Shown here: in pieces, positions 2,732-33,631 of the stretch | How the letters are laid out: each line of letters begins with the position of its first letter | Position numbering within the stretch: position 1 is the first letter of the stretch | Origin: a virus | IMG/VR virus record: IMGVR_UViG_3300048598_000014 | Location: 1 to 33,631 of that record | Length of the DNA stretch: 33,631 nt | Strand: one strand, 5' to 3' | The notes under the pieces: generated by a model | What the model was told of the DNA's origin: nothing | Seen by the model: only the letters and a program-made list of their open reading frames with translations | The model's database searches: none | Translations under genes and position numbers: made by a program

Positions 2732-3115
2732 ATGACGTTTAAGGAATGGTGGAAAGAAAAAGCATTAAAAATGATTGTACTTAATTATGGAGCAGAAGAA
2801 ATTGCTCATGACGCATGGCAAGCCGCACAGCCGAAGTGGACGTACTGCAAGGACGGAATGCCGAAAGAAAAAGACGGAAAAGTTATTACCACGCATGAAA
2901 CTGACGCTAGCTTTTATTCGCACGAGATAAAAGTTATTCGAGTTTATGTAAAACTTGAAACACAAAACCCGTTCAATGAAACTAGAATTGATAATTTTTG
3001 TCTTTCGACAAACAAGTTTGAAAAGTATGAAGACTTGGTTATCGCATGGATGCCGTTGCCGGAGGCGCCGGCAGAAATTAACAGTGGCTTTAATAAGCAA
3101 GGAGTACATATATGA
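2732..3115 (+). CDS. DUF551-like phage protein, paralog of 234..560
   Basis: C-terminal VIAWMPLPEAP and shared N-terminal motifs with 234..560. Confidence 0.7.
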   Translation: MTFKEWWKEKALKMIVLNYGAEEIAHDAWQAAQPKWTYCKDGMPKEKDGKVITTHETDASFYSHEIKVIRVYVKLETQNPFNETRIDNFCLSTNKFEKYEDLVIAWMPLPEAPAEINSGFNKQGVHI

Positions 3116-3285
3116 GCAAGAAGACGTTCACTTTGGTGACCGCAATCGTGGGGGGCGTGTCTACAACCGCTTCAGCAATCGTGACCTACGTCAACCCTGC
3201 ATGGGCTGTCGCAATCGTGGCTTCAATCGGCATCGTCAACACTGCGGTGGTGGCGGTGTGTAACCAGTTCGTCAAGGAGGAATGA
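3112..3285 (+). CDS. small hydrophobic membrane protein (57 aa)
   Basis: Hand translated: MSKKTFTLVTAIVGGVSTTASAIVTYVNPAWAVAIVASIGIVNTAVVAVCNQFVKEE. ATGA overlap with the upstream gene. Two hydrophobic stretches. Confidence 0.65.
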   Translation: MSKKTFTLVTAIVGGVSTTASAIVTYVNPAWAVAIVASIGIVNTAVVAVCNQFVKEE

Positions 3286-3409
3286 CAATGGCATGTGGAA
3301 AGAAATCTTCTGCCGGCAAGGGCGGGAAGAAATAAGCCCAGAACGGAACGGAAACACTGCGGCGGTGTAATTTCACGTCTTTCGTGAAAAGTACGCTATA
3401 AACAGGCTT

Positions 3410-3431
3410 CTCGCGCGTTTGCGGGCTTTTT
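3410..3431 (+). terminator. weak intrinsic terminator (CUCGC gcguuu GCGGG + U5)
   Basis: 5-bp stem including one G-U pair, followed by ctttttag. It lies at the end of the early small-gene block. Confidence 0.35.
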
Positions 3432-3476
3432 AGCTGGCACACTGTACGTCTATTTCTTGCTTGAATAATAAAACAG

Positions 3477-3505
3477 TGGACTTTAGGCGTAGAGTGTGGT
3501 ATACT
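3477..3505 (+). promoter_or_regulatory. sigma70-like promoter (TGGACT-17-TATACT with TGn extended -10) ahead of the ParB/rSAM/packaging operon
   Basis: Hexamers and spacing read from the sequence. Confidence 0.4.
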
Positions 3506-3572
3506 TAATCCATAGCGGAGACCTCCTGCCAGACCCCACATGATCAGGTTTCCGCTTCACTGGTGGGAAAAA

Positions 3573-4169
3573 ATGGACGAAATAAAAGTAAACTGCAAGG
3601 CAGCCGACACTCTCGACATACAGGACATGACGCTCTTTCAGGGCGAGTTGAAGTCACGCACCGATGCAGACTATGAGCATATAAAAAAATCAATACTTGA
3701 ATACGGCTTCTGCGCTCCGTTCTTCATCTGGGAGCATGACGGAGTGAACAGCGTCCTTGACGGTACGGGACGCTATGAGACATTGCAGCGAATGAAGTCA
3801 GAAGGATATGACATACCGCTCCTGCCGGTCGCATACATAGACTGCAAGGACGAGGCGACGGCGAAGCAAAAGCTGCTCAGACTTAATTCACACTACGGAT
3901 ACATGACTTCTGAAAGTGTAAAAGAGTTTGTCGGAGATATGGAAATAGACTATTCGGACATATCACTTCCAGAAGGTACGCTCGACTTTTCAAAGTTAGA
4001 AGAATACGAAACTGGTACGGAAGAAGGTGTTGAAGATATGATAAGCACCTTCGGAGTTACGCTTAATTTTGACAAAAGATATGAGCCGGATATAAAGCAG
4101 TTTGTAAAGGACAATGGGAAGCAGGCTGTAGTAGAGCAGATTATCAGCATGGCAGAGGCTAACGAATGA
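3573..4169 (+). CDS. ParB/Srx-like N-terminal domain protein 1
   Basis: The SILEYGFCAPFFIW...LDGTGRYETL pattern resembles the ParB-like nuclease domain (SI..fG...Pi.v...DG.hR). Start set at ATG 3573 by alignment with its paralog (MDEIKVNCKAADTL vs MIKIECKANDTL). Confidence 0.65.
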   Translation: MDEIKVNCKAADTLDIQDMTLFQGELKSRTDADYEHIKKSILEYGFCAPFFIWEHDGVNSVLDGTGRYETLQRMKSEGYDIPLLPVAYIDCKDEATAKQKLLRLNSHYGYMTSESVKEFVGDMEIDYSDISLPEGTLDFSKLEEYETGTEEGVEDMISTFGVTLNFDKRYEPDIKQFVKDNGKQAVVEQIISMAEANE

Positions 4170-4777
4170 TAAAAATTGAATGCAAGGCTAACGACACGCT
4201 CGCCATAGAAAAAATGAAACTATTTCAGGGGACGCTAAAGACAAGACTCCCAGAAGATTATGTAAAGATACAGAAATCAATTGAGCAGTACGGATTCAGT
4301 TTCCCGTTTTTCATTTGGAATTACAAAGGCGACAACTGGGTAATAGACGGTACAGGAAGATATGAAACCTTAAATAAAATGAAGGAAGCAGGGGAAAAAA
4401 TACCTGAACTACCTGTTGTATATATAAATTGCAAGGACAAAGAAGATGCGAAGCAGATACTTCTGAGAATAAATTCACAGTACGGGTCCCTTTCGCAGAA
4501 GAGTGTAGAAAAGTTTTCGGAGGATATTGAAGTTGAATATGCCGACTTGGACTTGCCAGAAGGATGCATATATTTCAGCGAAGATGAAGATGAGCCTCTG
4601 AATCTTGAATATGACACAGGGACAAGTGAAGATTCGGCAACGGCAGATACATTTGCAATGACGTTCGACATAGACAACGGGTACAGGGACAAGGTGCAGG
4701 AGTATATACGGAAAAATGGAAAACAGCAGCTCGTTAAGGTTGTGATGGAGCTTGCAGGAGTTGAGCAAGATGCCTAG
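4166..4777 (+). CDS. ParB/Srx-like N-terminal domain protein 2 (tandem paralog)
   Basis: Collinear similarity to 3573..4169 along its whole length (FQG.LK.R...DY..I.KSI..YGF..PFFIW, DGTGRYETL, LP..YI.CKD, LPEG). ATGA overlap with paralog 1. Confidence 0.65.
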   Translation: MIKIECKANDTLAIEKMKLFQGTLKTRLPEDYVKIQKSIEQYGFSFPFFIWNYKGDNWVIDGTGRYETLNKMKEAGEKIPELPVVYINCKDKEDAKQILLRINSQYGSLSQKSVEKFSEDIEVEYADLDLPEGCIYFSEDEDEPLNLEYDTGTSEDSATADTFAMTFDIDNGYRDKVQEYIRKNGKQQLVKVVMELAGVEQDA

Positions 4778-5765
4778 ATGCGGAAGCCAAATCGTTCTTT
4801 GCGATGTACCGGTTAGATTTGATACATACGAAGGGTGTACACATGCCTGCAGGTACTGTTTTGTGAAAAGGAAAACAGACATAAGAGACGTAAAGCTCGG
4901 AGAAAGCCCTGAACAGCTCATAGGGTTTATACACGGGAAAAGGACTAACGAGACGAAGTGGTGCGACTGGAAGATACCGATACACTGGGGAGGGATGAGC
5001 GACCCGTTCCAACCGTGCGAAAAAATACACAAACGTTCATTGGAGTGCCTAAGGGTTTTTGCAGAAACGGGCTATCCGTTCATGGTAAGCACGAAGAGCA
5101 TACTGCCCACGCAGAAAGAATATCTTGATTTATTCAAGAGGTGCAACTGCGTCTTTCAGGTAAGCATGGTATGCAGCAAATATGACGCATACGAGAAGGG
5201 CGCACCGACATTCGAGGAAAGAAAAAAGATGCTTGCCATAATGGCTCCGAACGTTAAAAGAGTTGTGGTGAGAATACAGCCGTACCTGCTTTCTGTAGAA
5301 AAAGATGTTATCGCACAGTTAAAAGATTATGCAGAAATGGGTGTGTACGGTATCACAATCGAAGGCATGAAATACAAAACACTCCAGAAGGATACTGAGA
5401 AGGTATACGGAGACTATGGATTCAAGCTGGACATTCTGCGGAGAAGTTTTGAGCGGATAAAAAACGAGGCGCACAGGGTAGGGCTCGTTTTCCTGAGCGG
5501 AGAAAACAGACTGCGCAGCATGGGAGACAGCCTGACGTGCTGCGGTTGCGAGGGGTTGGAAGGATTCAGGGTAAACACATACAACCTGAACAGCATGAAC
5601 TGCGGAAGGAGACCAGAGCCAACATCAGGGATGAGTGAAAGCGGGACTGCATTTGTATTCAAAGCCTTGTTTCAGGATTCTGGGGCAACGAAGGCATTTG
5701 AAAAGGCGTGCATGAAAGACGTAATGGACAGATACAGAAACGACCATAAGGACGTGGTAAGATAA
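4770..5765 (+). CDS. radical SAM enzyme, spore-photoproduct-lyase/COG1533-like
   Basis: CTHACRYC (CxxxCxxC) followed by WGGMSDPFQPCE, as in SplB/COG1533 proteins. ATG 4770 lies 9 nt after AGGAG. Overlaps ParB-2 by 8 nt and TerS by 1 nt (TAATG). Confidence 0.8.
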   Translation: MPRCGSQIVLCDVPVRFDTYEGCTHACRYCFVKRKTDIRDVKLGESPEQLIGFIHGKRTNETKWCDWKIPIHWGGMSDPFQPCEKIHKRSLECLRVFAETGYPFMVSTKSILPTQKEYLDLFKRCNCVFQVSMVCSKYDAYEKGAPTFEERKKMLAIMAPNVKRVVVRIQPYLLSVEKDVIAQLKDYAEMGVYGITIEGMKYKTLQKDTEKVYGDYGFKLDILRRSFERIKNEAHRVGLVFLSGENRLRSMGDSLTCCGCEGLEGFRVNTYNLNSMNCGRRPEPTSGMSESGTAFVFKALFQDSGATKAFEKACMKDVMDRYRNDHKDVVR

Positions 5766-6172
5766 TGACAGCAGGAAGAAAGTCGAAATACAGAGCAGAA
5801 ATGCTTGAAACCATTCTCAAGTTATACGAACAGGGAAAAAGTGATGCATACGTATGCGCGAAACTTGAGATAGACCGGACGACTTTCTACCGTTGGTATA
5901 AATCAAAAACAACATTTCGCCACACTGTTGATGAAGGAAGGCTGTTGGCGCAGTGTTGGTGGGAAGATTTGGGACAGAGGCTGTCAGGTGGGAGCGCCCA
6001 TGACAAGAACGGAAACCAGATTGTTACGAAGGGAAACGGGCGCGTGTGGAACTTCATAATGATAAACCGTTTCAGACAGGATTATCAGAACGCCCCTGAA
6101 AGACAGGCAACGACAGACAGCCTTGACGCAATACGCGAGGCGATACAGTCTGCGCTCGGAGGCGGTAAATGA
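5765..6172 (+). CDS. terS: terminase small subunit (HTH)
   Basis: Position directly upstream of TerL. HTH-like KSDAYVCAKLEIDRTTFYRWYK. ATGA overlap with TerL. Confidence 0.7.
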   Translation: MTAGRKSKYRAEMLETILKLYEQGKSDAYVCAKLEIDRTTFYRWYKSKTTFRHTVDEGRLLAQCWWEDLGQRLSGGSAHDKNGNQIVTKGNGRVWNFIMINRFRQDYQNAPERQATTDSLDAIREAIQSALGGGK

Positions 6173-7458
6173 AGCTGCTGCCGTTCAATGCTAAGGCGCG
6201 TGAGGTGTGCGATGCCAATCAGTTCGGCTATCTCACAGTGCTTGAGGGAAGCGTCAGAAGCATGAAAACAGTCACGTCGTTAATTGCGTGGCTTTTGTAC
6301 GTCATACGCTCTGACGAAAAAGTATTCCTGATGTCGGGCTATACAGCAGGCTCACTGCTCCATAACTGCATAACAGAGGAATACGGCTTGCAGAACATAT
6401 GCGGGGGAATGCTGACATTCAGGGCAGATGAGAACGGGCGCAAATACATGGCTCTAGGCGGAAAGCACATCTACTACTGCGGAGCGGGCACTGCGGACGC
6501 GCAGAGCGTAATAACCGGCTTGAGCATCGGCGGGTGGTATGCGGACGAAGTAAACAAGCACCACAAGACGTTCGTAAATCAGGCATTGAACAGAAGCATT
6601 GCAAGCCAGGACAGGTGCAACTTCTGGACGCTCAACCCTGAGGCGCCGTCACACTGGATTTACAAAGATTACATAGACAAGTACAAGGAGCAGAATCTTT
6701 CCGGCTACAGGTGGTATCACTTCACGCTTGATGATAATCCGGCAATCACAGCGGAACGCAAAGCAGAATTGAGACAGCAGTACACTGGAGTATTCTTCCA
6801 GCGCGACATACTCGGCTTGCGTGTTCGGGCAGAGGGAGCCTGCTTTCCTTCTTTCGTGCACAATGCAAAGGGAGCATACGGCAATGTCATGTATGAACTG
6901 CCGGAACATTTCAAACCGCTTTTTGCAAACATCGGCGCGGATATAGGCGGAACTGGATCTGCAACAACAAACGCCTGCACGGTGTTCTACCGGAACGATA
7001 AAGGCGAACTGTGCGGACTGCTCATTGATGAGATGTATGACACGGACAACAAGAGCACCGAGAGCATAATTGCCAATTTTAAGCAGTTTGTAATCAGGAA
7101 TAAAGCTAAATACAGAGTAGCAGGAGCAAGAAGCGACAGTGCGGAACAGCTCATCAAGAAGAGCTACGCTGCCACCGGTGTGTGCAACGTTGCGGACAGC
7201 TTAAAGCGTCCTATCGTTGACCGCATACGCTTCTTTGACCTTGCATACAGCCTTAAGCGCTTTTACATCTGGCATGAGTGCGTGCATACGATTGAGGCGG
7301 TTGAATCCGCGGTGTGGAGCGACAAGCCTAGCAAGGACGGAACGGAAACGCGCCTTGATGACGGAAGCACCAACATAGACAGTCTGGACGCTATGGAATA
7401 CAGCGTTGAGGAATACATGAGTGATTTTAATTTGGTAAAAATGGAGGCAGGGGAATGA
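6169..7458 (+). CDS. terL: terminase large subunit
   Basis: 429 aa. Deviant Walker A GSVRSMKT. PBSX/Terminase_3-like layout with acidic nuclease motifs (GADIGG, SLDAMEY). Position between TerS and portal. Confidence 0.8.
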   Translation: MKLLPFNAKAREVCDANQFGYLTVLEGSVRSMKTVTSLIAWLLYVIRSDEKVFLMSGYTAGSLLHNCITEEYGLQNICGGMLTFRADENGRKYMALGGKHIYYCGAGTADAQSVITGLSIGGWYADEVNKHHKTFVNQALNRSIASQDRCNFWTLNPEAPSHWIYKDYIDKYKEQNLSGYRWYHFTLDDNPAITAERKAELRQQYTGVFFQRDILGLRVRAEGACFPSFVHNAKGAYGNVMYELPEHFKPLFANIGADIGGTGSATTNACTVFYRNDKGELCGLLIDEMYDTDNKSTESIIANFKQFVIRNKAKYRVAGARSDSAEQLIKKSYAATGVCNVADSLKRPIVDRIRFFDLAYSLKRFYIWHECVHTIEAVESAVWSDKPSKDGTETRLDDGSTNIDSLDAMEYSVEEYMSDFNLVKMEAGE

Positions 7459-8153
7459 AATCAGAGACTTACAACATCGACTGTATGGATTACATGCGCA
7501 CGTGCAAAGATAAACAGTTTGATCTTGCGATTGTTGACCCGCCGTATGGACTTAATATAGATAAAAAAAATAATAGTGAAATAAAATTATCTGACAAGTC
7601 AGCAACGAAATCAAAATATTATGGAAATCAGGAATGGGATAATAATGTTCCTGATGAAAACTATTTTAACGAATTATTTAGAATATCAAAAAATCAAATA
7701 ATATGGGGTGTAAATTATTATCCTTATAATTTTTTATCAGGAGGAAGAATTTATTGGAATAAAAAAGTTACAATGCCCACATATAGTAGCGGAGAACTCG
7801 CATATTGTTCGTTGCAAAACAATATAAAACAATTTGATTATGAATGGCATGGAATGCTTCAACAGGATATGAAAAATAAAGAATTCCGTATTCATCCCAC
7901 CCAGAAACCCGTTGCTCTGTATAAATGGCTCCTGTCACATTATGCTCATGCCGGAGACAGAATTATTGACACACATCTTGGTTCTGGCTCTTCACGCATT
8001 GCATGCCATGACATGGGATTTGATTTTGTCGGCATCGAGATTGACAAGGATTATTTTGAAGCAGAAGAAAAAAGATACAGTGATCATGTTTCACAGCTTG
8101 ATTTAATAAAGCCGGAAGAGATACAGCAACTGCAATTCGCAGTAAACAAATAA
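7455..8153 (+). CDS. DNA methyltransferase (N6-adenine/N4-cytosine type, beta class)
   Basis: Motif IV DPPYG near the N-terminus, HPTQKPVALYKWLL, and motif I-like DTHLGSGSS near the C-terminus. Confidence 0.9.
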   Translation: MKSETYNIDCMDYMRTCKDKQFDLAIVDPPYGLNIDKKNNSEIKLSDKSATKSKYYGNQEWDNNVPDENYFNELFRISKNQIIWGVNYYPYNFLSGGRIYWNKKVTMPTYSSGELAYCSLQNNIKQFDYEWHGMLQQDMKNKEFRIHPTQKPVALYKWLLSHYAHAGDRIIDTHLGSGSSRIACHDMGFDFVGIEIDKDYFEAEEKRYSDHVSQLDLIKPEEIQQLQFAVNK

Positions 8154-29746: not shown

Positions 29747-30568
29747 ATGGAACGTATTGCATTGTATTGTGACAGCTTCCAAAACTGGAAGTCACACGAT
29801 ATACAAAAGGCGCAGTTGATTCTGACAGACATACCGTATCAGCTCGGAGATTCTGCATACGGTAGCAATCCAATGTGGTATAACGGTGGTGATAACGATA
29901 ATGGAGAATCAAAATATGCACATAAATCATTTTTCGATACAGATTCAAAAGCAGGTTTCCGCATTGCAGAGTTCTTTCATTTTTGCAGTAATTTGTTAAT
30001 CAAGGAACCGAAAGAAACAGGGAAAGCGCCGTGTATGATTTTATTCTGTGCATTTGAACAGCAGTTTGAATTGATTCAGGAAGCACAGAAATACGGTTTC
30101 AATCATTATATTAATTTGGTATTCAGAAAAAACTTTTCCGCACAGGTACTAAAAGCAAATATGCGCGTAGTCGGCAACTGTGAATACGGTCTTATTTTTT
30201 ACCGCGATAAATTACCGAAATTCAACAATGATGGCAAAATGATTTTTAACTGCATGGACTGGATAAAAGATACCGTGACGCCAAAAGTGCACGAAACACA
30301 GAAGCCGGTCCCGGTGCTCGAAAATCTTATCCGCATTTTTACCGATGTGAATGACGTTGTAATTGACTGCTGTGCCGGTAGCGGGACAACTTTGCTTGCG
30401 GCAAAAAATCTTGAAAGAAGGGCTTACGGATTTGAACTTAAAAAGAAATACGTAAATGATTTTTATGAAAAGATTCTGCCGTGCTATCAACCAGACATGT
30501 TCTGTGTACAAGAAAAGGAAAATAAAAAACTTAAACAGCTAGAATTTATGGAGGCTGTAAATGACTGA
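29747..30568 (+). CDS. DNA methyltransferase (N6A/N4C family) with variant motif IV DIPY
   Basis: LILTDIPYQLG, HETQKPVPVLENLI, DCCAGSGTT. Confidence 0.85.
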   Translation: MERIALYCDSFQNWKSHDIQKAQLILTDIPYQLGDSAYGSNPMWYNGGDNDNGESKYAHKSFFDTDSKAGFRIAEFFHFCSNLLIKEPKETGKAPCMILFCAFEQQFELIQEAQKYGFNHYINLVFRKNFSAQVLKANMRVVGNCEYGLIFYRDKLPKFNNDGKMIFNCMDWIKDTVTPKVHETQKPVPVLENLIRIFTDVNDVVIDCCAGSGTTLLAAKNLERRAYGFELKKKYVNDFYEKILPCYQPDMFCVQEKENKKLKQLEFMEAVND

Positions 30569-33270: not shown

Positions 33271-33559
33271 AGAAGCATGGGAAAATACCCAGAAAGATTA
33301 TTCAGAACTTACAGCAAGTTCGTATGTCGGTCTGTCTCTGAACAGAACGAAGGAACTTGCACGGCAGATGTATGCTGAAGGCGTATCGGCTATGTGCTCG
33401 TTGCAGGACTACAGGAATTTCAACGAATGGTTTGAAAATTACGGTGAGCCGGAAAAGAAGCACTCGACCATGAGTATGAGACGAGAGGACTTGGCGGAGA
33501 AGGCATGGGAAGCGGCGACATATATAGCGGAACATAAAGAAAAGGAGCAGGAAAAATGA
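33257..33559 (+). CDS. hypothetical protein (100 aa)
   Basis: ORF ending in an ATGA overlap with the gene that equals 52..237. Confidence 0.55.
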   Translation: MKTFEEAWENTQKDYSELTASSYVGLSLNRTKELARQMYAEGVSAMCSLQDYRNFNEWFENYGEPEKKHSTMSMRREDLAEKAWEAATYIAEHKEKEQEK

Positions 33560-33631
33560 GAACAAGCATTATGTGGCGGCAAGGTATGCTAGATATGTAC
33601 GGAGAGCGCAAGAGCCTCCGAGACTATCACA
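33505..33631. repeat. second copy of the 127-nt terminal repeat
   Basis: Identical to 1..127. Confidence 0.95.

Follow-up and report, generated by a model that had tools for sequence, protein, structure and literature searches.

The virus recorded in IMG/VR as IMGVR_UViG_3300048598_000014 (positions 1 to 33,631 of the record, the whole 33,631-nt stretch analysed here and called the window below) carries at positions 3573-5765 two tandem genes for ParB-like proteins, followed by a gene for a radical S-adenosylmethionine (rSAM) enzyme and then by the terminase genes. This module is both real and widespread and, to judge from our literature search, undescribed; we put at about one in two the probability that it is a post-replicative DNA-modification module, which is expressed late and opens the packaging operon. 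Our evidence consists of the anatomy of the genes, the fold assignments of their products, the conserved synteny of related loci, and homology to the gp53/gp52 enzyme pair of Pseudomonas phage M6. From these we infer that DNA would be the substrate, that the ParB-like proteins and the rSAM enzyme would interact, and that the modification would have a protective role. The module joins two recent themes, the ParB-fold activators of DNA-modifying enzymes and the involvement in DNA hypermodification of rSAM enzymes resembling spore photoproduct lyase (SPL). A full-text literature search for a ParB plus rSAM module (with terminase, prophage or hypermodification) returned no description, which agrees with the original prediction, made from the DNA sequence without database searches, that the arrangement could not be assigned to a described system.

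Gene anatomy of the module

The open reading frames (ORFs) at 3573-5765 are as the original prediction described them, two tandem paralogous ParB/Srx-type proteins (here A and B) and an rSAM enzyme, with A and B 49% identical across 197 aa (E 1e-67). The module and the features on either side of it are as follows.

3410..3434, plus strand: terminator-like hairpin and T-run closing the upstream (early) gene block, from a consensus scan (stem CTCGCG/GCGGG, then CTTTTTAGCT)
3477..3505, plus strand: promoter-like site (TGGACT, 17 nt, TG-TATACT), by consensus match only (9/12 plus an extended -10 TG)
3573..4169, plus strand: ParB-like protein A, 198 aa, isoelectric point (pI) 4.4; ParB/Srx-fold N-domain with a DGTGR box II, acidic linker and small C-terminal domain
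4166..4777, plus strand: ParB-like protein B, 203 aa, pI 4.5, paralogue of A
4770..5765, plus strand: rSAM enzyme, 331 aa from ATG 4770, pI 8.9, with the motifs C23-X3-C27-X2-C30, HWGGMSDPFQP-E and STK
5765..6172, plus strand: small terminase subunit (TerS) with an N-terminal helix-turn-helix (HTH); its start overlaps the rSAM stop (TAATG)
6169..7458, plus strand: large terminase subunit (TerL), with an ATGA overlap at either side
7455..8153, plus strand: N6/N4 DNA methyltransferase, part of this run of coupled genes, between TerL and portal

A 287-nt intergenic gap separates the early block from the late block, and the two ParB-like genes and the rSAM gene open the late side. The promoter-like site at 3477-3505 is probably the start of a transcription unit spanning the module and the packaging genes. 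Terminator-like sites are no more numerous than in shuffled sequence, so that the hairpin at 3410-3434 is weak evidence for the end of the early block. ParB-like A most likely begins at ATG 3573, which is preceded by a Shine-Dalgarno-like GGTGGGA; no comparable signal stands before the upstream ATG at 3540. For the rSAM ORF, which opens at TTG 4752, we take ATG 4770 as the likely start because homologues of 331-342 aa all begin MP.CGSQ. The overlaps that had been read as translational coupling to the small terminase proved exact (ATGA at 4166 between A and B, 8 nt at 4770-4777 between B and rSAM, TAATG at 5765 between rSAM and TerS), and the coupling continues with ATGA overlaps at 6169 (TerS/TerL) and 7455 (TerL/methylase). 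Judged from this gene order, the methylase at 7455-8153 shows that DNA-modifying genes are expressed from the operon that holds the module and the packaging genes.

Conservation of the module

Homologues of the rSAM enzyme number at least 1222 in a set of 5.8 billion proteins, and a 50%-identity library contained 273 rSAM clusters at E<=1e-30. We gathered 169 rSAM-containing loci from contig look-ups, IMG/VR (372 relatives confirmed, 80 kept) and GTDB species genomes (96 confirmed, 80 kept), called plus-strand ORFs with an in-house script and classed them with purpose-built hidden Markov models; synteny was counted in the 162 loci with at least 650 nt upstream of the rSAM gene. The survey of gene neighbourhoods next to terminases that the original prediction had proposed thus showed that the gene immediately ahead of rSAM is ParB-like in 149 of 162 loci and that 153 have a ParB-like gene within two genes of it; the first 85 loci measured had distances from the ParB-like stop to the rSAM start between -38 and +3 nt. 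The duplicated pair is common (63 of 162 loci carry two ParB-like genes in tandem) but not universal.

The first large protein downstream of the module fell into 50 clusters below 50% identity, and a Pfam scan of the cluster representatives (memberships can overlap) assigned 24 of the 50 to Terminase_6N, 20 to Terminase_3, three to TerL_ATPase, one to the GpA nuclease, one to a T7-type RNaseH (nuclease domain) and four to portal or capsid proteins. The terminases that follow the module therefore come from at least four Pfam TerL families; chaining with phmmer from four TerL seeds failed to unite all of them, and the terminase claim rests on the Pfam scan of the 50 representatives. The type of the neighbouring packaging machinery varies and its position does not. 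Since the terminase type varies while the pairing of ParB-like and rSAM genes stays, the rSAM enzyme is the constant partner of the ParB-like genes.

The carriers are anaerobes from many phyla, including Clostridia, Coriobacteriia, Bacteroidales, Planctomycetota, Elusimicrobia and Victivallales, mostly from the gut and also from sediment, a distribution that would suit an oxygen-sensitive enzyme. When the window was compared with GenBank phages, a DNA-level search gave no match and tblastn no close relative, only two uncultured faecal contigs with weak partial matches.

The radical-SAM enzyme

The rSAM protein scores 34.3 bits against Pfam PF04055 (gathering cut-off 29.5), and its AlphaFold2 (AF2) model (predicted local distance difference test score, pLDDT, 93; predicted template modelling score 0.91) has only rSAM enzymes as top PDB matches. 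SPL leads these matches (4fhg, 4k9r and 4rh0; E 7e-8 to 1.5e-7, template modelling (TM) score ~0.5) at 13-14% identity, followed by SkfB, SuiB, TsrM, PFL-AE, NifB and LipA at 1e-5 to 1e-4, and the list also takes in a viperin-like enzyme and protein- or peptide-acting enzymes. A phmmer search of the protein against PDB sequences gave no match, QueE models did not match it, and its PHROGs match is a family without assigned function. The NCBIfam matches are far below threshold (PA0069, 35.2 bits against a cut-off of 360; Rv2578c, 33.9 against 430; mobile-pair-B, 23.9 against 410), with no SPL family model among them, and two homologues carry the Joint Genome Institute (JGI) label 'DNA repair photolyase'. 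[quoted passage not shown] By its profile and fold matches we class it as SPL/COG1533-like, with PA0069, Rv2578c and the radical-SAM mobile pair B as related branches that are not its family.

Of the two motifs that had been singled out, the first is a family feature, the cysteines of CTHACRYC (CX3CX2C; C23, C27 and C30) being kept in 118 of 119 rSAM sequences, whereas the cysteine of SDPFQPCE is found in only 20 of 119 and is usually replaced by I, V or A. Other invariant or near-invariant features are H72-W-G-G, S77-D-P-F-Q-P-x-E84, S107-T-K, Q130, S132, R168-x-Q-P, E198, K201, E245-N-R-x-R, G252-D and C257-C258-G. At the N-terminus C11 is present in 118 of 119 sequences and C4 in 111 of 119. 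A second tier of relatives, 400-470 aa long, again has C11 and the CC pair without exception, and we conjecture that a C11/C257/C258 site could house another metal cluster. With a median pI of 8.78, the family is basic.

The best viral structural match of the rSAM model is BFVD A0A7S5RCB4 (469 aa, E 8e-12, TM 0.58), whose length is near that of M6 gp53 (480 aa). Some homologues, namely those in L113, L118-L120, L124, L129-L131 and L137 (Collinsella, Eggerthella and Eggerthellaceae assemblies), L015, L037, P0029 and P0096, have a conserved C-terminal extension of ~90 aa with the consensus FTRWLKSTGI.AKE.NELTGTQMASHYLC..GQTA.PT. The one match that suggests an HTH-like nature for the extension is weak, to a designed repeat protein of HTH-like sequence pattern, and we do not claim an HTH identity. 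A search of the locus proteins found the extension domain in no other protein of the loci. In L174 (5361-9144), a distant 453-aa relative with the C11, CX3CX2C and CCG cysteines sits in a replication module between an SAM-methyltransferase-like ORF and a family B DNA polymerase (PolB), with no ParB-like gene. A single-protein locus search with the long relative P0358 gave no match, and an alignment-based search returned mostly the same rSAM family again, together with two long relatives.

A PLP partner and the phage M6 enzyme pair

A pyridoxal phosphate (PLP) enzyme (Pfam PALP) is encoded in 33 of the 141 loci with distinct rSAM sequences, at position +1 after the rSAM gene in 31 of 33 placements and nearly always between rSAM and TerS. 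It accompanies 28 of 51 two-ParB loci as against 5 of 79 one-ParB loci. This partner belongs to the subgroup of 1-aminocyclopropane-1-carboxylate (ACC) deaminase, D-cysteine desulfhydrase (DcyD), XcbE and CuyA, with PDB profile matches to 1f2d (1.5e-8) and 4d8t (1e-7).

Both enzymes have homologues in Pseudomonas phage M6, where gp53, an SPL-like rSAM enzyme encoded beside the PLP decarboxylase gp52, isomerises N-alpha-glycinylthymidine on DNA in a pathway that yields 5-(2-aminoethyl)uridine in DNA; gp53 is the sole rSAM enzyme known to help install a DNA modification (PMC8989533). For the comparison gp53 was taken from the M6 genome and gp52 was the ORF read upstream of it. With its motifs CTVGCAFC and SFTDPFLPIE, gp53 has (S/T)DPF-P-E and CX3CX2C in common with the window rSAM family, and the family profile aligned to it with hhalign at 91% (E 1e-6) over 169 core columns, a remote relationship in which the regions outside the core differ. 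The PLP partner aligned with gp52 from end to end (hhalign 96%, E 2e-9, 253 columns; hmmsearch E 4.9e-12 in a single comparison). On these alignments, the occurrence of homologues of both gp53 and gp52 in the module is the strongest pointer to DNA hypermodification.

The likeness is thus that of a phage SPL-like rSAM enzyme adjoining an ACC-deaminase-type PLP enzyme of ~280 aa, and the differences are several. gp53 has 480 aa, other N- and C-terminal regions and no C11 or CCG cysteines; the order of the rSAM and PLP genes is reversed, and the window itself is without a PLP gene. M6 further depends on 5-hydroxymethyldeoxyuridine (5-hmdU), on a P-loop kinase and on an amino-acid:DNA transferase. 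A PHROGs scan of the larger ORFs of the window genome gave no match for any of the three, and in the absence of a recognisable 5-hmdU pathway M6 chemistry cannot apply there as such. We know of no ParB partner in M6.

The ParB-like proteins

At E<0.1 no Pfam family, PF02195 included, matched the window ParB-like proteins. In PHROGs they match phrog_498 (methylase N-terminus), phrog_620 and phrog_940 at 1e-7 to 1e-12, a 41-sequence family profile found Spo0J/ParB (6sdk, 3e-5) and a ParB-domain nuclease in the PDB (range 3e-5 to 3e-4), and PF02195 is present in most of the homologues found with the family profile. The AF2 model of ParB-like B (mean pLDDT 72) is confident across residues 7-117, which comprise a ParB/Srx domain (7-90) and two helices (92-117); there follow a disordered, very acidic stretch (~119-162, net charge -17, with disorder assigned at 132-162) and a C-terminal domain of two helices (171-196) with a conserved TF..TF motif ahead of them. 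Foldseek searches with this model returned Noc 7nfu (3e-5), the pNOB8 ParB-N domain, Srx 6ky4, ParB 6t1f/7bnk, KorB and PadC, and further SbnI 5uje (25% identity, 80 aa) and the free serine kinase SerK 5x0b. The predicted ParB/Srx-type N-domain is thus borne out by four kinds of evidence, but the proteins do not consist of that domain only, given the helix pair, the acidic disordered linker and the conserved C-terminal domain of ~40 aa. The original prediction would have been undone by failed ParB-like calls together with an rSAM protein from a non-DNA family; the ParB calls held and the rSAM protein is SPL/COG1533-like.

The phosphate-binding G-x-x-R motif of box II reads DGTGR in A and B, with G62 and R65 invariant in family alignment A4, and is GGHQR in most relatives, while in box I the window proteins have FQG(T/E)LK in place of NPR. 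The N-domain would be of the nucleoside triphosphate (NTP)-binding type. The family is acidic (median pI 4.64 in 205 sequences). Neither Pfam nor the AF2 model revealed an HTH or other DNA-binding domain in the window proteins, and Pfam, PHROGs, profile and model agree that, as had been noted, HTH and fused methylase are both absent. The same applies to ParA, which was not among the ORFs scanned in the complete circular window assembly, and a search for parS-like or pac-like repeats in 3100-6300 found no array, only short chance repeats and echoes of paralogy. Having no HTH, ParA or parS array, the window proteins do not qualify as canonical ParABS ParB. The PADLOC defence models gave a methylase N-terminus only for the ParB-like proteins and no match for the rSAM enzyme. 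Relatives whose N-domains are 44-54% identical to those of the window have other C-termini, among them a DPPYG methylase; with phrog_498 and a published survey (PMC12704722), they confirm that in phages this domain usually occurs as a fusion with methylases.

Within the main two-copy clade the box motifs NPR, GGHQR and LNK are present in both copies, and the upstream copies make up one subfamily and the downstream copies another (mean bit scores of 224 and 136 inside the groups, 104 between them). The window pair falls into a divergent subtype whose boxes read FQG(T/E)LK, DGTGR and LR(I/L)NS. A and B are mutual best matches and both are 45% identical to the single copy of the nearest phages (L009-L012), which indicates a duplication independent of that in the main clade. 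As judged from these identities, then, the ParB-like duplication has at least two origins, and the window pair is a lineage-specific duplication of the divergent subtype. A natural fusion of both copies, P0135 (373 aa, L091 1108-2229), is followed by rSAM, PALP, TerS and TerL. From the independent duplications and this fusion the ParB-like protein can be predicted to work as a dimer, often a heterodimer.

Where only one ParB-like gene is present, the gene before it varies. L009 (4458-5342) and L012 have a gene of the 3'-phosphoadenosine-5'-phosphosulfate (PAPS) reductase family (PF01507, 7e-18) where the window has its first ParB copy, and L010 and L011 have a 282-aa protein without family match in that place. 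In other single-ParB loci (e.g. L079 4846-5274, L058 4510-5163 and L016 4587-5231) the preceding gene often has weak matches to sigma-70 region 4 or HTH families, and it may encode a late-gene activator ahead of the module.

We also considered a ribbon-helix-helix identity of the Arc/CopG type for the C-terminal domain (TF..TF.FP..-helix-NGK-helix). This was rejected, as hhalign against Arc gave a probability of 2.7%, though in the expected register, and a profile search of the PDB gave no match.

Proposed function and comparison with known systems

Under the DNA-modification reading, the basic SPL/COG1533-like rSAM enzyme would be the catalyst, cleaving SAM at its [4Fe-4S] cluster, and the resulting 5'-deoxyadenosyl radical would abstract hydrogen from a base or base adduct in replicated phage DNA. 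The acidic ParB-fold paralogues, probably as a heterodimer, would bind the rSAM enzyme and activate or gate it on duplex DNA, perhaps under NTP control, a role modelled on the phage ParB activators of thymine dioxygenases and on DpdB for DpdA. The PLP enzyme, where present, would trim or supply an amino-acid-derived group. Packaging of the modified DNA would follow at once, and this DNA would presumably be protected from host nucleases. Besides the M6 homology, we count for this reading the charge contrast between the basic rSAM and acidic ParB-like proteins, and the timing implied by the promoter-like site ahead of the module and by its translational coupling to TerS, TerL and the methylase. 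Among the roles that the original prediction had offered, DNA modification before packaging is the favoured one, and repair and a pac-site accessory function have been weakened.

One precedent for the ParB partner is a phage ParB that a neighbouring thymine dioxygenase requires for activity on double-stranded DNA, in vivo and in vitro (5mYOX176/ParB176; PMC13229309, 2026). This 5mYOX-associated ParB combines a nucleotide-binding domain and a helix pair with an unstructured linker and a dimerisation domain at the C-terminus, and has no DNA-binding domain (PMC13229309). Compared by layout, the window AF2 model is the same, and here too a ParB protein without DNA-binding domain adjoins an enzyme; the partner there, however, is an Fe/2-oxoglutarate dioxygenase and not an rSAM enzyme, and there is one ParB where the module often has two paralogues or a fusion. 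A survey of the ParB fold describes phage fusions to methylases, enriched in prophages, and binding of CTP, ATP or GTP (PMC12704722, 2025); an rSAM partner is mentioned in neither paper. The ParB-methyltransferase fusions of phrog_498, the best PHROG match at 1e-11, have the same type of N-domain, which in the window stands alone beside an rSAM enzyme instead of an SAM methyltransferase.

A ParB-like protein also assists a DNA base-modifying enzyme in the case of DpdB, an ATPase that, as summarised in PMC12839542, helps DpdA insert preQ0 into DNA, but the window has neither a tRNA-guanine transglycosylase-like DpdA nor preQ0 genes. SplB is like the module enzyme an rSAM protein of similar size (340 aa) that acts on duplex DNA, and it is the best solved structural match; it differs in that the module sits in phage late operons of anaerobes, at 13-14% identity, and to our knowledge SPL has nothing that corresponds to its additional invariant cysteines, C11 and C257/C258. 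In the Dnd system (ParB-like DndB, PAPS-reductase-like DndC and PLP desulfurase DndA) and in IbrA/IbrB, a ParB-fold protein again stands beside DNA-modification enzymes. The PAPS-reductase gene before ParB in L009 and L012 and the D-cysteine-desulfhydrase-like PLP partner elsewhere are further likenesses, while DndD and DndE were not seen, the PLP fold type is unlike that of DndA, and the window has no PAPS-reductase gene. Sulfur chemistry in the ParB/rSAM module is by this analogy a conjecture.

A more specific version of the DNA-modification reading, which we put forward only tentatively, is that the radical-generated modification is placed directly on canonical or merely methylated bases with no 5-hydroxymethyl precursor, that the ParB-fold activator is heterodimeric and NTP-gated, and that the C11/C257/C258 triad holds a second Fe-S cluster for co-substrate binding or atom donation. 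If this were true, phages of gut anaerobes would widely carry DNA hypermodification of a new class.

A number of points weigh against DNA modification as the function. We know of no modified base in any carrier and of no experiment on the ParB/rSAM family. The fold similarity to SPL is modest (TM 0.5), little above that to SkfB, SuiB, PFL-AE and LipA, the homology to M6 gp53 is remote and restricted to the rSAM core, and the PLP gene is absent from the window itself. A PHROGs-only scan of the larger ORFs of the window genome, several of them without any match, found no hydroxymethylase, 5mYOX, P-loop kinase (5-HMUDK) or amino-acid:DNA transferase. The very acidic ParB proteins could equally have a non-DNA role, and the terminase-adjacent position may be a permissive insertion site and not a functional link.

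The module is common in the phages of anaerobes, a group with almost unexplored DNA chemistry, and ParB-fold activators of DNA-modifying enzymes were experimentally shown only in 2026. Should it modify DNA, it would bring new chemistry to the anti-restriction repertoire of phages, with consequences for sequencing and host-range work on gut phages, and a new radical enzyme for DNA tagging. The question is directly testable, because carrier prophages occur in the culturable hosts Anaerotruncus colihominis and Mediterraneibacter gnavus.

Alternative explanations

The alternative that survives best, though we regard it as rather unlikely, is a substrate other than DNA. The ParB/Srx-fold proteins would then work on small molecules as kinases or NTPases, as SerK, SbnI and sulfiredoxin do, and the rSAM enzyme, with or without the PLP enzyme, would transform a nucleotide, amino acid or protein, perhaps as anti-defence, through synthesis or removal of a signalling or antiviral nucleotide, or perhaps to modify a virion or packaging protein. 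SbnI, a free serine kinase and sulfiredoxin are indeed among the Foldseek matches of the ParB-like model, and SbnI partners with the PLP enzyme SbnA in staphyloferrin B synthesis. The strong acidity of the ParB-like proteins, their lack of a detectable DNA-binding domain, the failed ribbon-helix-helix test, and the viperin-like, protein- and peptide-acting enzymes among the rSAM fold matches all fit such a role as well. Against it, the rSAM family is basic, and its best matches are two DNA-acting rSAM enzymes, SPL and M6 gp53; the PLP partner has a homologue in M6 gp52, an enzyme whose substrates are adducts carried on DNA; and the N-domains closest to the window ParB are fused to DNA methylases, a methylase N-terminus also being all that PADLOC gave.

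We consider it improbable that the module serves DNA repair, with an SPL-like lyase and ParB-like helpers removing a lesion (e.g. a thymine dimer-type crosslink) from concatemeric DNA before packaging. SPL is the top solved structural neighbour, homologues carry the JGI 'DNA repair photolyase' labels, and the rSAM enzyme is expressed just ahead of packaging; yet no NCBIfam SPL model matched and the other matches lie far below their cut-offs, the frequent M6 gp52-like PLP partner has no role in lesion reversal, and the invariant C11 and CCG cysteines are, so far as we are aware, foreign to SPL. In gut and sediment anaerobes, moreover, UV photoproducts should be rare.

Least probable of the three is a packaging accessory, with ParB-like proteins that help TerS or that mark or organise the pac region, and with the rSAM enzyme as a passenger or regulator. 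The module does lie directly upstream of TerS/TerL, the terminases there belonging to at least four Pfam TerL families, and in the window translational coupling links it to them, but the constant partner of the ParB-like genes is the rSAM enzyme and not any terminase type, a PLP gene intervenes between rSAM and TerS in nearly all of the 33 of 141 distinct loci that have one, the ParB-like proteins are acidic and without HTH while TerS has its own, and there is no parS-like repeat array in or near the module. Such probability as is left beyond DNA modification and these three alternatives we assign to something that we have not considered.

Genome context

The window is a complete circular assembly of ~33.5 kb, with an exact end overlap of 127 nt (nt 1-127 identical to 33505-33631), and represents a siphovirus-type genome. 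The nearest relatives of its capsid protein are those of Clostridioides difficile phages, at 47% identity. The replication module is divided between both sequence ends; the replication/recombination block comprises DnaD-like, DnaC-like, SSB, RecT-like, HNH and Lar-like genes, and a long plus-strand late block comprises TerS, TerL, methylase, portal, head, tape measure and endolysin.

Two N6/N4 DNA methyltransferases are encoded in the window genome, the ATGA-coupled gene at 7455-8153 between TerL and portal and a second at 29747-30568 in the early region. A short HNH endonuclease (2284-2514) and a Lar-like restriction-alleviation protein (2537-2719) lie ~0.85-1.3 kb upstream of the module. Two paralogous small proteins of 108 and 127 aa (234-560 and 2732-3115; 37% identical, E 2e-17) have a common MTF.EWW start and AWMPLPEAP end, and one of them matches phrog_924.

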